Below, in pieces: positions 2,919 through 44,825 of a DNA stretch of 46,513 nucleotides. Source of the stretch: a virus. Lineage: Duplodnaviria; Heunggongvirae; Uroviricota; Caudoviricetes. A program made the position numbers and the translations under genes. The first letter of the stretch is position 1, and the number at the start of each line of letters is the position of its first letter. The DNA is taken from the IMG/VR virus record IMGVR_UViG_2718218361_000005. One strand, given 5' to 3'. The notes below the pieces were generated by a model, which did not search any database, was not told where the DNA came from, and saw only the letters and a list, made by a program, of their open reading frames with translations.

Positions 2919-5900
2919 TATGCAAGCCTCACAATATAGTTAAATGCGATGTTTTTGACGGTGTTTTCCGCGTTACCAGCAGCGTTAACGGTGATGGTGT
3001 GTCCATGTGAACCAATCGCAACGGAGTGCGTATGAGCACCAATACCGACAGTATGTGCATGTGCGCCTGCGCTTGCAGCAGTGCCGGACAGCGAGTGGGT
3101 ATGAGCACCATCTGATGATGTCTTCCCTGCATTACGAGTCTGGCCACTACCGCTTGTTGTGCTCATAATCCCCGCGCTTAGATTTGAAATCGCGGTATAA
3201 CCATTAGGGAAAATGCTCGTGTTCGTGCCACCAAATGCACCGGAACTCTTGTGTTGGTGCGCACCGGCACTATTTGCGGTCCCGCTAATACTATGGGTAT
3301 GCGCCCCGGTGTTATTCGTGGATTTGGTTCCGTAATCAAACGACGATGTGGTTTTCGTCCCCAAATCCGTACTGGATGCGCTGGCGCTGTGGGTGTGCGA
3401 TTTAATGCCGTCCTGTTCCTGAGATAATACGGCCCGACCACTGGCGGGCTTGCCCTTAATCGTCCAGCCACGCATATCAGGGATCACGCCTGACGGATAA
3501 GCAACTGCAAGTTTCGGGTATGCAGATTTGTCAAAAGTCTGCCCCTGCATCAGGGCATAACCAGACGGAACGGTATCTGATGGCCACGGGATTGGTGCAC
3601 CGACTGGATAAAACTCTGCAGGAGGATGAGCCGAGGTGTAAAGCTGCGCCCACGGCGACCAGTTTGCGTCGGTCGTATCCCGTCGTGAACGAATAAATGC
3701 CGGAGCATGAGCACCGCTTGTACCACTCCAGCCGATGAGTAACTCACCTTCGCCAACGGCTGTCATCCCTTTCAGGTGAATGATATTTCCATACGCTGTT
3801 GGATATCCGTTGTTATACACCTCGTATAACTCAAGACCTGCTGCCCCCTGCGTATTGTCTGTCAGCGCGGTTACCCGACCTTTTGAAGCCAGATTAACTG
3901 ATGATACTGCTGTTCCACCTGACGGTAACGCCCCGATCTCTGATGCCGTTGGCTTATTTCTGGAGTTATAGTCCCTTCGCCAGCCAGGTGAATAATCTGT
4001 TCCGTGATTAATATAGGTAAACTGGGCGTTAGTTGTTCCACCACCAGTGGAGGTGGTCGGTGTGGTAATGCGGATCGTCATCGCTGACTTTATCCCCATT
4101 ACTTCAATGACAGCTCCGGCGAGATGAATATTACCGCAGTCAGTATCAGTAATGATTTTATTATTGCCATAAGACCAGGAACCCTTGCACATCCAGTATG
4201 GATGGTTAAATGCTCCCTGAGAATCCAGCCACTCGATAAACTGTGCAGTCGTCCAGTTTCCTGTTGTTGTGCTTACTGACCCACCGAAGGCACGGCAGGC
4301 ACCAATATTTTTCGTAAAGGTATCTTTGCCAGGGATATCCGCACCGTTCTGATCTTTCTGCAGACGTTTCTCAGCATTGTCATTGGCTGCTTTTACTGCC
4401 TTTGGTGTCGCGGCAAGCGTTTCAGACGTGCTGTTGGTCGCGCTGCTTAGCTGGATTATCCCTTTCTGTGCTGTCGTTGCATCCTGTGCGGTGTATTTCC
4501 CGTTAGCCAGGTCATACGCGGCCTTAACGGCTTTTGGCGTTGCCGCCAGTGACTCGGAAGTGCTGTTGGTCGCACTGCTGAGCTGTACTATCCCCTTTTT
4601 CGTCGTGCTCGCATCCTCAAGCGCCACGGCGGATGCAATATCCTCTGCCCGTTTTGCCGCTGTCTCAGCGCGCGTTGCTGCAGATTCCGCCGTACTTTTG
4701 CTCTGAGCTGCTGCCGTCGCACTGCCAGCTGCCTCTGTCGCCTTCGTGGATGCCGTCGTGGCGCTACCCTTCGCTGCTGACGCCTGTCTGGTCGCCTCAT
4801 CTTTTGAAGCAGACGCAGATGATGCCGATGACGACGCCGAACTGGCTGACGATGCGGCAGCCGTTTTTGAGGATTCTGCGCTGGTTTCCGACGCTTTCGC
4901 GTTCGTTTCGGATGTCTTCGCTGCGGAAGCAGACCTCGCTGCTGCGCTGGCCTGTTCAGTGGCTTCGCCAGCCTTCGTTGTGGCTGTTGAAGCAGACGAT
5001 GCGGCGCTTTCTGCCGATTTTCCGGCGGCGGTGGCACTGGCTGAGGCCTGCCCGGCACTTGTTGACGCTGCACTGGCAGACGACGCAGCCGCTGTTTTTG
5101 AGCCTGCCGCAGCCGAGGCGCTCTGTCCCGCTGCCGTTTCAGAAGACCTGGCGTTCGTCTCTGACGTTTTTGCCGCCTTCGCGGAATTTCCTGCCGCTGT
5201 TGCCGAGGAAGCTGCGCTACTGGCGCTCGAGGATGCGTTCGTTTCTGATGATTTTGCCGCCTCTTTTGAAGCCGCCGCATCCCGGGCTGAGGTGGCAGCT
5301 TCTGACGCTTTCGTAGTCGCGGTGGATGCAGAAGTGGCTGCTGATTGTTGTGACGCTGCAGCATTCGTTTCTGACGTTTTCGCGGCACTGGCACTGGTAG
5401 CTGCCGCGCTTTTTGAGGACTCTGCAGCGGCAGCACTTTTTGATGCTTCAGTGGCCTTTGTTGATGCCGTTCCTGCGCTGGAAGTCGCTGACTGAGCCGA
5501 CGACGCGGCCTGTCCGGCTGACGTGCTGGCTGCGCGTGCTGAGCCTGCAGCATCAGTCGCATGGGTTGCCGCCTCACGGGCTGATGTGCTGGCATCACTG
5601 GCTGACTTCTTCGCGGCCGCCGTGTTCTGTGCCACCACGGACGCGTTACGCGCCACCTCTTCCACCATCAGCTCAAAACGGCGCAGTGCCTCCGGACGGG
5701 CATCATCCTCCGTCATGGCACCGAGAAAATCATTCAGCGTACCGGGTCGGGAATCTTCATACACTGTGATGGTCCCGGCATGTGACGGCGGGAATCCTTC
5801 CACCAACAGAATAACGCTGTACTGACCGTACTCAACGTCCATACTGTAACGCCCGGCTTCATCCGGATTTTCAGATGCCAGCGTGTTCACCACCACCGTG

Positions 5901-28763: not shown

Positions 28764-29846
28764 ATGAAAAAATTAACAGTGGCAATTTCTGCTGTAGCTG
28801 CATCAGTACTGATGGCGATGTCTGCTCAGGCAGCTGAAATTTATAATAAAGACAGTAACAAGCTGGATCTGTACGGGAAAGTTAATGCTAAGCACTACTT
28901 CTCCTCTAATGATGCAGATGATGGTGATACTACTTATGCCCGTCTTGGCTTCAAAGGTGAAACCCAAATCAACGATCAACTGACTGGTTTCGGTCAGTGG
29001 GAATATGAATTCAAAGGCAACCGCGCTGAATCTCAAGGTTCCTCCAAAGACAAAACCCGTCTTGCATTTGCAGGCCTGAAATTCGGTGACTACGGCTCAA
29101 TCGATTACGGCCGTAACTACGGTGTAGCATACGACATCGGTGCGTGGACTGACGTTCTGCCAGAATTCGGTGGCGATACCTGGACCCAAACAGATGTATT
29201 CATGACTGGTCGCACCACAGGTGTTGCAACTTATCGTAACAACGACTTCTTTGGTCTGGTTGATGGCCTGAACTTTGCAGCTCAGTATCAGGGCAAAAAT
29301 GACCGAAATGAAGTAACTGAAGCTAATGGCGATGGTTTCGGTTTCTCAACTACTTATGAGTATGAAGGATTCGGCGTGGGTGCAACCTATGCTAAATCTG
29401 ATCGCACTAATAATCAGGTTATCTACGGTAACAACGGTCTGAATGCTTCTGGTCAAAATGCTGAAGTATGGGCAGCTGGTCTGAAATATGATGCGAACAA
29501 CATCTATCTGGCCACCACCTATTCTGAAACCCAGAACATGACTGTTTTTGGTAATAACCATATTGCCAACAAAGCACAAAACTTCGAAGCTGTTGCACAA
29601 TATCAGTTCGACTTCGGCCTGCGTCCATCCGTTGCTTACCTGCATTCTAAAGGAAAAGACTTGGGTGTTTGGGGTGATCAGGACCTGGTTGAATATATTG
29701 ATGTAGGTGCAACCTATTACTTCAACAAAAATATGTCCACTTTTGTTGACTACAAAATCAACCTGATTGATAAGAGCGATTTCACGAAAGCATCTGGCGT
29801 TGCTACCGATGATATCGTTGCTGTAGGTATGGTTTACCAGTTCTAA
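28764..29846 (+). CDS. nmpC: General porin of the OmpC/OmpF/NmpC family (360 aa incl. signal peptide), apparently intact
   Basis: Signal peptide [23 protein letters not shown], porin beta-barrel ending ...VGMVYQF; located between Q and the lysis genes on the opposite strand, as nmpC in DLP12. Confidence 0.85.
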
Positions 29847-32145: not shown

Positions 32146-32511
32146 ATGATTGATGTCTTAGGACCGGAGAAACGCAGACGGCGTACTACACAGGAAAAGA
32201 TCGCTATTGTTCAGCAGAGTTTTGAACCGGGAATGACGGTCTCCCTTGTTGCCCGGCAACACGGTGTGGCAGCCAGCCAGTTATTTCTCTGGCGCAAGCA
32301 ATACCAGGAGGGAAGTCTTACTGCTGTGGTCGCAGGAGAGCAGGTCGTTCCTGCCTCTGAACTTGCTGCTGCCATGAAGCAGATTAAAGAACTCCAGCGC
32401 CTGCTCGGCAAAAAAACGATGGAAAATGAACTCCTTAAAGAAGCCGTTGAATACGGGCGTGCAAAAAAGTGGATAGCGCACGCGCCCTTATTGCCCGGGG
32501 ATGGGGAGTAA
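32146..32511 (+). CDS. insC: IS2 transposase OrfA, InsC (121 aa)
   Basis: ATG at 32146 ([24 protein letters not shown]...), HTH, IS3-family orfA. Confidence 0.9.
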
Positions 32512-33374
32512 GCTTAGTCAGCCGTTGTCTCCGGGTGTCGCGTGCGCAGTTGCACGTAATTCTCAGACGAACCGATGACTGGAAAGATGGTCGCCGCAGC
32601 CGTCACTCAGATGATACGGATGTGCTTCTCCGTATACACCATGTTATCGGAGAGCTGCCCACGTATGGTTATCGTCGGGTATGGGCGCTGCTTCGCAGAC
32701 AGGCCGAACTTGATGGTATGCCTGCGATCAATGCCAAACGTATTTACCGGATCATGCGCCAGAATGCGCTGTTGCTTGAGCGAAAACCCGCTGTACCGCC
32801 ATCGAAACGGGCACATACCGGCAGAGTGGCTGTGAAAGAAAGTAATCAGCGATGGTGCTCTGACGGGTTCGAGTTCCGCTGTGATAACGGAGAAAAACTG
32901 CGAGTCACGTTCGCGCTGGACTGCTGTGACCGTGAGGCACTGCACTGGGCGGTCACTACGGGCGGCTTCAACAGTGAAACAGTACAGGACGTCATGCTGG
33001 GAGCGGTGGAACGCCGTTTCGGCAACGAGCTTCCGGCGTCTCCAGTAGAGTGGCTGACGGATAATGGTTCATGCTACCGGGCTAATGAAACACGGCAGTT
33101 TGCCCGGATGTTGGGGCTTGAACCGAAGAACACGGCGGTGCGGAGTCCGGAGAGTAACGGCATAGCAGAGAGCTTCGTGAAAACGATAAAGCGTGACTAC
33201 ATCAGTGTCATGCCCAAACCAGACGGGTTAACGGCAGCAAAGAACCTTGCAGAGGCATTCGAGCATTATAACGAATGGCATCCGCATAGTGCACTGGGTT
33301 ATCGCTCGCCACGGGAATATCTACGGCAGCAAGCCAGTAATGGGTTAAGTGATAACAGGTGTCTGGAAATATAG
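32469..33374 (+). CDS. insD: IS2 transposase OrfB, InsD (DDE integrase core); expressed as InsCD fusion by -1 frameshift
   Basis: 301-aa ORF overlapping the insC 3' end in the -1 frame; DDE transposase motifs. Confidence 0.9.
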
Positions 33375-41918: not shown

Positions 41919-42704
41919 ATGAGTACAGCACTCGCAACGCTGGCTGGGAAGCTGGCTGAACGTGTCGGCATGGATTCTGTCGACCCACAGGAACTGATCA
42001 CCACTCTTCGCCAGACGGCATTTAAAGGTGATGCCAGCGATGCGCAGTTCATCGCATTGTTGATCGTCGCCAACCAGTACGGCCTTAATCCGTGGACGAA
42101 AGAAATTTACGCCTTCCCTGATAAGCAGAACGGCATCGTTCCGGTGGTGGGCGTTGATGGCTGGTCCCGTATCATCAATGAAAACCAGCAGTTTGATGGC
42201 ATGGACTTTGAGCAGGACAATGAATCCTGCACATGCCGGATTTACCGCAAGGACCGTAATCATCCGATCTGCGTTACCGAGTGGATGGATGAATGCCGCC
42301 GCGAACCATTCAAAACCCGCGAAGGCAGAGAAATCACGGGGCCGTGGCAGTCGCATCCCAAACGGATGTTACGTCATAAAGCCATGATTCAGTGTGCCCG
42401 TCTGGCCTTCGGATTTGCTGGTATCTATGACAAGGATGAAGCCGAGCGCATTGTCGAAAATACCGCATACACTGCAGAACGTCAGCCGGAACGCGACATC
42501 ACTCCGGTTAACGATGAAACCATGCAGGAGATTAACACTCTGCTGATTGCCCTGGATAAAACATGGGATGACGACTTATTGCCGCTCTGTTCCCAGATAT
42601 TTCGCCGCGACATTCGCGCATCGTCAGAACTGACACAGGCCGAAGCAGTGAAAGCTCTTGGATTCCTGAAACAGAAAGCCTCTGAGCAGAAGGTGGCTGC
42701 ATGA
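41919..42704 (+). CDS. bet: Bet single-strand annealing recombinase (261 aa)
   Basis: Matches lambda Bet. Confidence 0.95.
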
Positions 42705-43381
42705 CACCGGACATTATCCTGCAGCGTACCGGGATCGACGTGAGAGCTGTCGAACAGGGAGATGATGCGTGGAACAAATTACGACTCGGCGTCATCACGG
42801 CTTCAGAAGTTCACAATGTGATAGCAAAACCCCGCTCCGGTAAAAAGTGGCCTGACATGAAAATGTCCTACTTTCACACCCTGCTGGCTGAGATTTGCAC
42901 CGGTGTGGCTCCGGAAGTTAACGCTAAGGCGCTGGCCTGGGGAAAACAGTACGAGAATGACGCCAGAGCCCTGTTTGAGTTTACTTCCGGCGTGAATGTT
43001 ACTGAATCCCCGATCATCTATCGCGACGAAAGTATGCGCACCGCCTGCTCTCCCGATGGTTTATGCAGTGACGGCAACGGCCTTGAACTGAAATGCCCGT
43101 TTACCTCCCGGGATTTCATGAAGTTCCGGCTCGGTGGTTTCGAGGCCATAAAGTCGGCTTACATGGCCCAGGTGCAGTACAGCATGTGGGTGACGCGAAA
43201 AGATGCCTGGTACTTTGCCAACTATGACCCGCGCATGAAGCGTGAAGGCCTGCATTATGTCGTGATTGAGCGGAATGAAAAGTACATGGCGAGTTTTGAC
43301 GAGATGGTGCCGGAGTTCATCGAAAAAATGGACGAGGCACTGGCTGAAATTGGTTTTGTATTTGGGGAGCAATGGCGATGA
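42701..43381 (+). CDS. exo: Exo 5'-3' exonuclease (226 aa)
   Basis: Matches lambda Exo. Confidence 0.95.
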
Positions 43382-43536
43382 AGCATCCTCACGATAATAT
43401 CCGGGTAGGTGCGATCACTTTCGTCTACTCCGTTACAAAGCGAGGCTGGGTATTTCCCGGCCTTTCTGTTATCCGAAATCCGCTGAAAGCCCAGCGGCTG
43501 GCTGAGGAGATAAATAATAAACGGGAGAGTGTATGA
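43378..43536 (+). CDS. Small ORF, lambda orf60a-like (52 aa)
   Basis: Hand translation [52 protein letters not shown]; ATG overlaps the exo stop. Confidence 0.5.
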
Positions 43537-44285
43537 TTCATTTTCACGGTGGTCCAATAACTCCCGATACCTGTGCGTTGAAAGCCTGGAAAGGCAGACA
43601 CGCATTCATCAGTTTTGCTAATCCAGCTCAGATTGATCTGGCTTCCGAAGTCACCCAATCATTTGCTCTTGATAATGGTGCATTCACATTCTGGACAAAA
43701 AACAAGGCCATAGACTGGAATGAATATTACAGATTTGTTGAACGCTGGGGTAATCACCCTCGTTTCTCATTCGCGGTTATCCCGGATGTTATCGGCGGAA
43801 CCAGTGAAGAGAATGACGCCCTGATTGCGGCATGGCCTCACGGTAAATTTATTGGTGCTCCGGTGTGGCACATGAACGAACCAGATGAGCGATTTATTCG
43901 TCTGTGCCATGAGTTTCCCCGCGTCTGCATCGGCTCGATGGGGGAATACGATGCAAAACGACCGAGAGCGTGTCGGGCTAAACTACGCGATCTTATACGT
44001 CATGTTGTAGATCAGTACGGCTACCCAATCACCAAGATTCATGGGTTACGGATGTTAAATAAAGACATTTTTACTCATGTACCGCTTTCGTCTGCAGACA
44101 GCACGAACGTCGCAAGAAATATAGGCATCGACAAATCCTGGGTAGGTTCGCCATATGCTCCCGCAAGTAAAGAAACCCGTACGCAAGTTCTTGTGGAACG
44201 CATTGAATCATTCAACAGTGCCAGTTCACTTAATTACAACGCTGAACGGGACGTCTTTACCCCTCAACTGGCATTCGAAGTGTGA
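43533..44285 (+). CDS. Hypothetical 250-aa protein; motif order weakly resembles the tRNA-guanine transglycosylase (Tgt/DpdA) superfamily, unverified
   Basis: Motifs in Tgt-like order: FALDNGAF (cf. TDSGGFQ), AVIPDVIGG (cf. FDECT), IGSMGEY (cf. GGLAVGE), HGLRMLNKD (cf. MGVGKPED); no Zn-binding Cys cluster; memory-based comparison only. Confidence 0.5.
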   Translation: MIHFHGGPITPDTCALKAWKGRHAFISFANPAQIDLASEVTQSFALDNGAFTFWTKNKAIDWNEYYRFVERWGNHPRFSFAVIPDVIGGTSEENDALIAAWPHGKFIGAPVWHMNEPDERFIRLCHEFPRVCIGSMGEYDAKRPRACRAKLRDLIRHVVDQYGYPITKIHGLRMLNKDIFTHVPLSSADSTNVARNIGIDKSWVGSPYAPASKETRTQVLVERIESFNSASSLNYNAERDVFTPQLAFEV

Positions 44286-44292
44286 GGCCAAT

Positions 44293-44508
44293 ATGACAAT
44301 AGAACATAATAACGCCCTTCGCAGCATTGCCCGTCAGGCTAATTCTGAAATCAAAAAAGCCAGACAGCAGTTTCCGGATAAAAACGTCGATGACATTTGC
44401 CGTAGCGTACTAAAGAAGCACCGCGAAACGGTAACGCTGATGGGATTCACACCGACTCATTTAAGCCTGGCGATCGGCATGTTAAACGGCGTCTTTAAGG
44501 AACGGTGA
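44293..44508 (+). CDS. Hypothetical 71-aa protein, downstream partner of the 250-aa gene
   Basis: ATG 8 nt after the upstream stop with GAGG SD; followed by a terminator-like hairpin. Confidence 0.5.
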   Translation: MTIEHNNALRSIARQANSEIKKARQQFPDKNVDDICRSVLKKHRETVTLMGFTPTHLSLAIGMLNGVFKER

Positions 44509-44529
44509 ACATGAAAAGAAAAATCATCA

Positions 44530-44554
44530 GGGAGCTACAGGCTCCTTTTTTATT
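44530..44554 (+). terminator. Putative intrinsic terminator after the 250-aa/71-aa gene pair
   Basis: Hairpin ggagc-tacag-gctcc followed by ttttttatt; short stem. Confidence 0.45.
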
Positions 44555-44606
44555 GTTCGCATTCATCCTCAAGCGTATTAACCAACAATTCAGGGATTAA
44601 TGGAAG

Positions 44607-44825
44607 ATGGCAGACATCATTGATTCGGCATCAGAAATCGAAGAATTACAGCGCAATACAGCAATAAAAATGCGTCGTCTGAACTACCAGACTGTATCCG
44701 CAACTCATTGTTGTGAGTGTGGCGATCCGATAGATGAGCGAAGACGCCTGGCTGTTCAGGGTTGTCGGACTTGTGCAAGTTGCCAGGAGGAGATCGAACT
44801 TAAGAACAAACAATGGGGACTGTGA
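44607..44825 (+). CDS. TraR/DksA-family C4 zinc-finger protein (72 aa)
   Basis: CxxC...CxxC (CCECGDPIDERRRLAVQGCRTCASC) in a small acidic-N-terminus protein. Confidence 0.7.
   Translation: MADIIDSASEIEELQRNTAIKMRRLNYQTVSATHCCECGDPIDERRRLAVQGCRTCASCQEEIELKNKQWGL

Follow-up and report, generated by a model that had tools for sequence, protein, structure and literature searches.

A predicted singleton DpdA gene in a single-gene cassette of the lambdoid exo-xis region

We identified a 250-aa open reading frame in a 46,513-nucleotide stretch of caudoviral DNA (IMG/VR record IMGVR_UViG_2718218361_000005; the whole stretch is called the window) that probably, at roughly 60%, encodes a phage singleton DpdA. 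Judged by its sequence and predicted structure, the protein would be a minimal, Zn-less TIM-barrel DNA-guanine transglycosylase from a gamma-proteobacterial clade that lacks 7-deazaguanine synthesis genes. The DpdA enzymes of other phages swap DNA guanine for a 7-deazaguanine base, leading to restriction escape. The gene is already known as a DpdA prediction. Phage SfI protein YP_009147480, which is 99.6% identical to the 250-aa protein, was listed as a predicted ‘singleton DpdA’ (Hutinet et al., 2019), and the activity of this protein is likewise a prediction.

Genomic context

The first-pass annotation of this DNA had placed the 250-aa ORF downstream of exo and an orf60a-like ORF and upstream of a 71-aa ORF and a terminator-like hairpin. 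All of these features are present (Table 1), with the spacing between the 250-aa and 71-aa ORFs corrected from 8 to 7 nt. Both exo and bet lie upstream (the window ORFs include matches to Pfam YqaJ and RecT). The ATG of the DpdA-like gene shares bases with the TGA of the preceding DUF1317/orf60a ORF in an ATGA overlap. Promoter prediction on the + strand between positions 43200 and 44900 returned no candidate, and an own promoter for the 250-aa gene was rejected.

Table 1. Features of the DpdA-like locus in window coordinates.
Feature	Position	Strand	Basis or remark
exo gene, YqaJ-type, leftward early operon	42701..43381	+	Pfam YqaJ; SfI annotation
orf60a-like DUF1317 gene	43372..43536	+	Pfam PF07026, E=2e-33
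GGGAGAG, Shine-Dalgarno-like, a few nt 5' of the DpdA-like ATG	43523..43529	+	read from sequence
250-aa ORF, predicted singleton DpdA-like gene	43533..44285	+	minimal TIM-barrel TGT/DpdA member, without Zn site
Single-gene cassette, orf63 slot	43536..44310	.	homology to lambda, VT2-Sakai and PhiR30_1 lost, then regained
71-aa orf61-like exo-xis gene	44293..44508	+	phrog_303, function not known, E=1e-34
Terminator-like hairpin (44529-44547), then T-run	44529..44556	+	pattern scan

The 250-aa gene occupies a sharply bounded cassette. In blastn comparisons with lambda, VT2-Sakai and PhiR30_1, homology is lost at 43535-43543 and returns at 44311, 18 nt inside the 71-aa ORF. The cassette thus contains only the 250-aa gene and the first six codons of the 71-aa ORF. 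Its GC content is 47.1%, compared with 52.4% across bet-exo. The arrangement resembles the lambda exo-xis region in its flanks, orf60a (DUF1317) and an orf61-like gene, with the cassette exactly at orf63, and differs in content: orf63 specifies a developmental regulator of 63 aa, the cassette a predicted 250-aa enzyme. The same slot holds orf63 in VT2-Sakai as well, and approximately 177 phage records keep the flanks and lack the 250-aa gene. In the sibling phage PhiR30_1, the orf63 slot encodes a Dam methyltransferase (Pfam accession PF05869). By positional analogy, the presence of a DNA methyltransferase in this slot supports a DpdA reading of the 250-aa gene. Homologs in SPN3UB and RothD are located elsewhere, after the replication genes and beside Eaa/Ea22-like genes.

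Family and predicted fold

The 250-aa protein matches PHROG 887 (‘queuine tRNA-ribosyltransferase’, E=2e-99) and is 35% identical to the DpdA of phage 7-11 (BLASTP, E=1e-36). Its AF2 model (pLDDT 94.8, pTM 0.91) is an eight-stranded TIM barrel with eight beta/alpha units, the (beta/alpha)8 catalytic domain of the TGT/DpdA superfamily. In hhalign comparisons, the family profile aligned with the DpdA1 profile (98.8% probability, E=1e-16) and with the DpdA of phage CAjan (98.7%, E=1.6e-16), and the viral structure neighbours of the 250-aa protein are all DpdA-type. Homology and fold thus bear out the Tgt/DpdA-superfamily assignment that had been offered from short motifs, and structure prediction, proposed as a check on it, returned a TIM barrel. 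On these sequence and model comparisons, membership of the 250-aa protein in the DpdA family holds.

Searches aimed at TGTs were negative. The 250-aa protein had no match among Pfam (including TGT, Pfam accession PF01702), NCBIfam or PADLOC DpdA models. Searches of PDB sequences, by phmmer with the protein and by hmmsearch with an 82-sequence profile, recovered no TGT and only noise (HipT, GCN4). The hhalign comparison of the family profile with the single E. coli Tgt sequence also gave no match. CAjan DpdA behaves similarly: it and its profile had no match among PDB sequences, and it did not match Pfam TGT either. The PADLOC DpdA model did match CAjan DpdA at positions 200-259, in the region of the nucleophile Asp (E=1.3e-3).

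Alignments of the 250-aa protein to other DpdAs end near residue 197, and its C-terminal 50 residues are clade-specific. The protein ends 61 residues past the putative nucleophile Asp. It has four cysteines, which are poorly conserved across the 82 family sequences, and a near-neutral pI of 7.15. It also lacks Ins1 and Ins8, two DNA-binding insertions found in bacterial DpdA. The pI, the missing insertions and the lack of a TGT link in Pfam, NCBIfam, PADLOC and PDB searches count against a DpdA reading.

Predicted active site

Profile–profile alignment (E=1e-16) places the motifs LDNGAF, IPDVIGG, PVWH, IGSMG, KIHGL and SSADST in register with CAjan LDSGAF, VLDGIGD, PCFH, IGGMVG, KLHAF and YSCDSS. 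A TGT-superfamily motif order had been suggested from four short motifs; with six in register with CAjan DpdA, the agreement is far beyond chance. Among 82 family sequences, down to 31% identity, D47 (82/82), D85 (81/82), H113 (81/82), H170 (82/82) and D189 (80/82) are conserved, and in the AF2 model all five residues lie at the C-terminal ends of strands.

The suggestion that LDNGAF is the catalytic Asp motif gains support from D47, which is invariant, closes strand 43-47 (beta3) within a (T/L)D(S/N)G(G/A)F-type motif and aligns with D63 of CAjan LDSGAF. D47 also corresponds to Asp95 of bacterial DpdA (bDpdA), likewise at the end of beta3, a match made by strand topology and not by 3D superposition. 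F51 occupies an aromatic position (F, Y or W) in 81 of the 82 sequences, aligns with CAjan F67 and is the likely counterpart of the base-stacking aromatic, Phe99 in bDpdA. D85 pairs with D105, an invariant DpdA1 residue, in agreement with the base-recognising Asp after beta4 (Asp130 in bDpdA, Asp156 in Zymomonas TGT). D189 lies inside strand 187-190, at the end of beta8, and aligns with the invariant D206 of DpdA1, as expected of the nucleophile Asp (Asp256 in bDpdA, Asp280 in TGT).

The Zn-binding Cys cluster that had been reported missing is indeed absent: the structural Zn-site motif CxCxxC occurs in none of the 82 family members, nor in any of 18 DpdA1 sequences, including CAjan. Because CAjan DpdA also lacks CxCxxC, its absence is no objection to a DpdA assignment. 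The Zn motif therefore defines TGT and bDpdA and not phage DpdA. An argument against DpdA from the absent Zn site was considered and rejected, as this absence is normal in phage DpdA.

Relation to known enzymes

The closest known system is that of the singleton DpdA phages. The SfI gene has the same genomic position, its phage carries no preQ0 pathway and its host makes preQ0; nothing of substance differs, and the window gene is this gene in a further E. coli prophage. Hutinet et al. (2019) place Enterobacteria phage SfI YP_009147480, Escherichia phage HK106 YP_007151699, Vibrio phage Athena1 AUG84879 and Salmonella phage 7-11 in a ‘third group’ of gamma-proteobacterial singletons. They still count singletons, which lack preQ0 genes, as DpdA. 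They also describe the gamma-proteobacterial singletons as a separate similarity cluster that may have diverged functionally and call the function of the clade open. Phage 7-11, the closest tested singleton, contains 50 dADG per 10^6 nt, a trace amount (PMC6884629) that corresponds to only ~0.02% of G, and Mycobacterium phage Orion has none (PMC6884629). The separate cluster and these two measurements count against a DpdA reading. A full-text literature search found no paper assaying a lambdoid or SfI-type DpdA.

DpdA1 of Queuovirinae (CAjan YP_009196829; 9g DpdA) has a homologous TIM-barrel core at ~20% identity to the 250-aa protein. The two families have the motifs LD(S/N)GAF, D, H, G, H and (C/A)DS in common. 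DpdA is essential for dPreQ0 in phage CAjan (PMC6884629), a virulent phage with ~32% of G modified, in which the 306-aa enzyme has a different C-terminal region and is encoded in a folE-queD-queE-queC cluster. In contrast, the window protein is 250 aa long and is encoded alone in a temperate lambdoid phage.

Bacterial DpdA (Salmonella Montevideo, PDB 7UI4) also has catalytic Asp residues ending beta3 and beta8 and a base-reading Asp. However, it is a 413-aa protein with Ins1-3 and Ins8 and a structural Zn site (CXCX2CX22H), and it needs the DpdB ATPase; none of these is found here. Membership in a bacterial Dpd restriction-modification system was rejected: neither dpdB (ParB-like ATPase) nor dpdC-K is among the Pfam matches listed for the window, and there is no PADLOC DpdA match. 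TGTs (bacterial 3UNT, archaeal 1IQ8) differ in having a Zn site, an N-terminal lid and tRNA-binding domains, all absent from the 250-aa protein, which has no detectable sequence match to PF01702 or E. coli Tgt.

Cap10 of type IV CBASS (PDB 9NTN) has a catalytic D248/H226 pair and base-reading D73/S74/D122 that resemble D189/H170 and D47/N48/D85. Cap10, however, acts with the QueC-like enzyme Cap9 on the CD-NTase N-terminus in a defence operon and is only 10% identical. CBASS Cap10 membership was rejected: the resemblance is structural only, there is no PADLOC match, and no QueC, CD-NTase or Cap9/QueC-like family is among the Pfam matches listed for the window ORFs.

Alternative readings

An unrelated TIM-barrel metabolic enzyme with coincidental TGT-like motifs is effectively refuted by sequence and model comparison. 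Foldseek against the PDB does rank tryptophan synthase alpha, PdxJ and aldolases on top, with weak E-values, and there is no Pfam TGT match; but CAjan DpdA likewise lacks that match, six active-site positions are in register with DpdA1 and the viral structure neighbours point the same way. It is also very improbable, and already contradicted by comparative genomics, that the 71-aa ORF joins the 250-aa ORF in a dedicated two-gene system, with the small protein as cofactor or specificity subunit. The first-pass annotation had proposed such a unit from the close spacing on one strand and the following hairpin, and bacterial DpdA does require a partner, the DpdB ATPase (PMC10164549). The proposed unit fails because the break and return of homology make the inserted cassette single-gene. 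The 71-aa ORF is 94% identical to orf10 of VT2-Sakai, an orf61-like gene in a phage without the 250-aa gene. Lambda orf61 matches its first 24 residues, and both identity and position downstream of orf60a/orf63 place it in the orf61 family. The DNA of the hairpin region is also common to phages without a DpdA-like gene. Only 13 of 80 related loci have an orf61-like ORF directly 3' of the DpdA homolog, 11 of them being the same cassette at ≥99% identity, and the SPN3UB and RothD homologs have other neighbours. Moreover, the phage DpdAs of 9g, nt-1 and VH7D function alone in E. coli. By these comparisons, the 71-aa ORF is a resident of the exo-xis region, unrelated to the 250-aa gene and not its specific partner.

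Alternatives that accept the TGT fold concern the reaction. A true TGT-fold enzyme with a changed substrate, be it base exchange in tRNA of the host or the phage, Cap10-like transfer of a deazaguanine-linked protein or insertion of another base than preQ0 (preQ1 or CDG, for example), is unlikely, although the separate clustering of the singleton clade, the trace or absent DNA modification in tested relatives and the clade-specific C-terminus past residue 197 are consistent with it, and DpdA2 enzymes promiscuously accept preQ1, preQ0 and CDG (PMC10516641). Against a changed substrate, sequence ties the family to the DNA-modifying DpdA1 rather than TGT or Cap10, tRNA-binding extensions such as PUA are absent from the protein, the listed window matches include no Cap9/QueC-like or CD-NTase gene, and a sibling phage has a DNA methyltransferase in the same slot. 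We consider it improbable that the enzyme acts on DNA by base removal only (glycosylase-like), or processes DNA without 7-deazaguanine insertion, for example in host DNA damage or counter-defence. In its first half-reaction TGT excises a base via a covalent Asp intermediate (PMC10164549), Endo IV and TatD are further examples of DNA enzymes with a TIM barrel, and the phage supplies no precursor genes. Yet the putative base readers D85 and H113 and the putative acid/base D47 are conserved as much as the nucleophile, and phages with a singleton DpdA generally have hosts capable of making preQ0 (PMC6884629).

Substrate supply and proposed mechanism

FolE, QueD, QueE, QueC and Gat-QueC are all missing from the Pfam matches listed for the 47 largest window ORFs, which cover 25 of 28 families in one batch of ORFs and 25 of 45 in the batch of structural genes. 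Searching within 10 kb of 80 related viral loci by tblastn with CAjan proteins, a search run without a positive control, likewise found no preQ0 genes. By these searches the prophage lacks genes for preQ0 synthesis, which leaves the host as the source of any substrate. Such supply is feasible, because 9g DpdA expressed alone in E. coli draws on the host pool to insert dPreQ0 into plasmid DNA (PMC6884629).

We propose that, in the exo-xis region, a single-gene cassette took the place of orf63 and now lies between orf60a and the orf61-like gene. From this position it follows that the DpdA-like gene would be read with the leftward early (PL-type) operon in lytic growth, and it would be silent in the lysogen. 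Mechanistically, a double-displacement base exchange as in TGT and DpdA is most likely. D189 would attack C1' of a flipped-out deoxyguanosine, with H170 positioning this nucleophile, D47 acting as general acid and base, and D85 and H113 reading the base edge. The excised guanine would be replaced by preQ0 from host FolE/QueD/QueE/QueC, or by a close derivative, which may finally appear as dADG. Replicated phage DNA would then be expected to carry sparse 7-deazaguanine marks at specific motifs, and these would blunt restriction when the next host is infected.

More tentatively, the gamma-proteobacterial singleton clade may be a functionally distinct temperate-phage TGT-fold enzyme and no mere weak copy of the Queuovirinae one. 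It could use host queuosine precursors to place rare, sequence-specific 7-deazaguanine marks, in which case the gene would be a portable, one-gene cassette for epigenetic anti-restriction that can trade places with Dam. Alternatively, it could act on a non-DNA substrate (tRNA or protein).

Distribution and implications

We found the gene at ≥99% identity in 100 of 5426 complete E. coli genomes (~2%), and many prophages of Salmonella, Klebsiella, Vibrio and Aeromonas contain relatives. If the enzyme is active, lambdoid prophages in this ~2% of genomes may give rise to virion DNA with 7-deazaguanine derived from the queuosine precursors of the host. Such marks would affect restriction escape, the horizontal transfer of prophages (serotype-converting and Stx-type phages included) and the sequencing or cloning of phage DNA. 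With one small gene, a tractable lambda-type phage and a host with well-defined que mutants, this clade is the simplest test case for the question raised by Hutinet et al. (2019) of whether singleton DpdAs are functional DNA modifiers.

Protein family and active site

We identified the 250-aa protein as a predicted member of the DpdA family, phage enzymes that replace guanine in DNA with 7-deazaguanine. The protein has no match in Pfam, NCBIfam or PADLOC and is assigned in PHROGs to phrog_887, "queuine tRNA-ribosyltransferase" (E=2e-99). Its AlphaFold2 model, built from an alignment of 82 diverse homologs, comprises eight strand-helix units (pLDDT 94.8, pTM 0.91). Foldseek searches returned only generic barrels from the PDB and 30 viral models at E<=1e-3, of which all named ones are phage queuine tRNA-ribosyltransferases. 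The family profile matches the DpdA of phage CAjan (98.7% probability, E=1.6e-16) and the profile of the CAjan-type DpdA1 family (98.8% probability, E=1e-16). We consider this sequence-profile match the decisive link for the predicted assignment. Deletion of dpdA abolishes dPreQ0 in CAjan (Hutinet et al., 2019; PMC6884629). BLASTP also relates the protein to the DpdA of Salmonella phage 7-11 (35% identity, E=1e-36), a singleton, that is, a phage dpdA not accompanied by phage-encoded preQ0 synthesis genes.

Five residues are conserved across 82 sequences with identity down to 31%: D47 (82/82), D85 (81/82), H113 (81/82), H170 (82/82) and D189 (80/82). In the model they lie in or right after beta3, beta4, beta5, beta7 and beta8, respectively, which puts them on the catalytic side of a TIM barrel. 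In the profile alignment they pair with the invariant D63, D105, H132, H187 and D206 of DpdA1. Bacterial DpdA has its general acid/base, Asp95, just before the beta3/alpha3 insertion; its beta8/alpha8 insertion starts at the nucleophile Asp256, and the base is read by Asp130 and His181 (PMC10164549). The first-pass annotation had paired the LDNGAF motif with the catalytic TDSGGFQ-type motif, and this pairing is correct because the conserved residues match the DpdA1 invariants in the alignment and the catalytic positions of bacterial DpdA in strand topology. The reported absence of a Zn-binding Cys cluster also holds: CxCxxC occurs in 0 of the 82 family sequences. The motif is likewise missing from 18/18 DpdA1 sequences, CAjan included. 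The cluster sets TGT and bacterial DpdA apart from phage DpdAs, and its absence is no argument against membership.

Distribution

The protein is 99.6% identical to YP_009147480 of phage SfI, which occupies the same genomic position and is named queuine tRNA-ribosyltransferase in RefSeq. Hutinet et al., 2019 (PMC6884629; Supplementary Data 1) list the SfI protein as DpdA, along with HK106 and Vibrio phage Athena1; full-text literature searches turned up no experimental study of a lambdoid DpdA. The DpdA identity of the SfI-type gene is thus known already, at the level of prediction. Of 5426 complete E. coli genomes, 100 carry the gene at >=99% identity, in every case chromosomally and annotated by PGAP as hypothetical. 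At 90% identity the family falls into 6182 clusters, and 906 representatives remain when the threshold is lowered to 50%.

Genomic context

Pfam scans of the larger ORFs identify the window as a complete lambda-type prophage with a lambda-like head and tail module, lysis genes, antiterminator Q, replication genes O and P, and a CI-like repressor. At its right end, genes from gam to int follow one another on the + strand.

Features at the right end of the prophage, in genomic order
Feature	Position	Strand	Source
gam		+	
bet	41919-42704	+	Pfam scan
exo	42701-43381	+	Pfam scan
DUF1317/orf60a gene	43372-43536	+	Pfam scan
250-aa ORF (DpdA-like)	43533-44285	+	
71-aa ORF (orf61-like)	44293-44508	+	
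Hairpin with T-run	44529-44547		Pattern scan
TraR/DksA-type zinc-finger gene	44607-44825	+	Pfam scan
DUF4222 gene, then int	right end	+	Pfam scan

The physical layout described earlier was essentially recovered, including the hairpin; the gap between the 250-aa and 71-aa ORFs measures 7 nt, not the 8 nt given. The orf60a stop and the ATG of the 250-aa ORF overlap as ATGA, preceded by GGGAGAG, which couples the start of the DpdA-like gene to orf60a. No promoter of its own is predicted.

Elsewhere, the prophage carries a complete Gram-negative porin gene (28764-29846, +; Porin_1, E=3e-152), a lysogenic-conversion-type moron with the lysis genes on one side and the Q region on the other. The nin/Q-proximal region contains an IS3-family-like insertion sequence (32146-33374, +), made up of an HTH_Tnp_1 ORF and, after it, an rve/rve_3 ORF. 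At the left edge, past the tail-fibre genes, are an AraC-type regulator (1-750, -) and a short ORF (1848-2279, +) with weak methyltransferase-domain matches under the Pfam cutoff (Methyltransf_12, E=3e-5); both are likely cargo or host genes from the flank.

In blastn comparisons, homology to lambda, VT2-Sakai and PhiR30_1 is lost at 43535-43543 and regained at 44311. Between these breakpoints lies a single-gene cassette (43536-44310), whose right end falls 18 nt into the 71-aa ORF. The slot holds orf63 in lambda and VT2-Sakai, and in Escherichia phage PhiR30_1 (1661-2218) a Dam-type DNA N6-adenine methyltransferase (PF05869, E=2e-56). The interval between orf60a and orf61 is a cassette-exchange site with shared breakpoints, occupied by orf63, a Dam-type methyltransferase or a DpdA-like gene.

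The first-pass annotation had also proposed a two-gene unit with the 71-aa ORF. That ORF is a phrog_303 member (PHROGs) and shares 94% identity with the VT2-Sakai orf61-like gene, and about 177 phage records contain the flanking DNA at 95-99% identity minus the 250-aa gene. In 80 IMG/VR loci that encode relatives (66-100% identity), an orf61-like ORF comes directly downstream in only 13, and 11 of the 13 are copies of this one cassette at >=99% identity. SPN3UB and Klebsiella phage RothD carry the homolog behind the replication genes, beside Eaa/Ea22-like genes. We reject a dedicated pair on these contexts, the records with no enzyme and the cassette breakpoints.

For SfI, RefSeq places the start of the orf61-like gene at an earlier ATG (117 aa; 44155-44508, +, in the window), so that the ORF runs over the final 131 nt of the DpdA gene. 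The 71-aa form is more likely, judging from sequence, because homology to other phages starts only at 44311 and GAGG precedes its start. Lambda DNA (2919-3411) is 95% identical to 44311-44802, over the whole orf61-like gene and beyond; despite this match, only the N-terminal 24 residues of the 71-aa protein match lambda orf61. Reading frames in this stretch evidently differ between lambda and Stx/SfI-type phages.

Source of the base and proposed function

QueC, QueD, QueE, FolE and QueF are absent from the Pfam families listed for window ORFs. Homologs of CAjan FolE, QueD or QueC were found within 10 kb in 0 of the 80 related loci, a soft negative from tblastn run with no positive control. The prophage falls into the 'third group' described by Hutinet et al., in which the phage encodes DpdA alone and the host usually makes preQ0 itself (PMC6884629). 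Host supply of the base is feasible, because 9g DpdA, when produced by itself in E. coli, puts dPreQ0 into plasmid DNA (PMC6884629). Caulobacter phage DMCA has a homolog with 40% identity directly 3' of a 98-aa QueD/PTPS-like gene (3705-4726; PF01242, E=1e-4), a pairing not seen in the enterobacterial prophages.

The main rival explanation is divergence of the singleton clade, either in its substrate or in the base that it inserts. Hutinet et al. placed singletons of this clade in a separate similarity cluster and flagged possible divergence; they found only 50 dADG per 10^6 nt in phage 7-11 DNA and none in Orion (PMC6884629). The best structural match of the 250-aa protein is the protein-directed Cap10. 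The protein is also neutral (pI 7.15) and, unlike bacterial DpdA, has no DNA-binding insertions.

The present data establish the gene context, the fold, the homology and the conservation of the active site; substrate, product, timing and benefit are inferred. We infer that the 250-aa enzyme most probably performs a TGT-type double-displacement base exchange on DNA. Its interchange with Dam in one and the same slot fits a role in DNA modification. The gene would be read with the leftward early operon in lytic growth, and selected guanines would be exchanged for host-derived preQ0 or a derivative. The resulting sparse marks may hamper restriction of the phage DNA.
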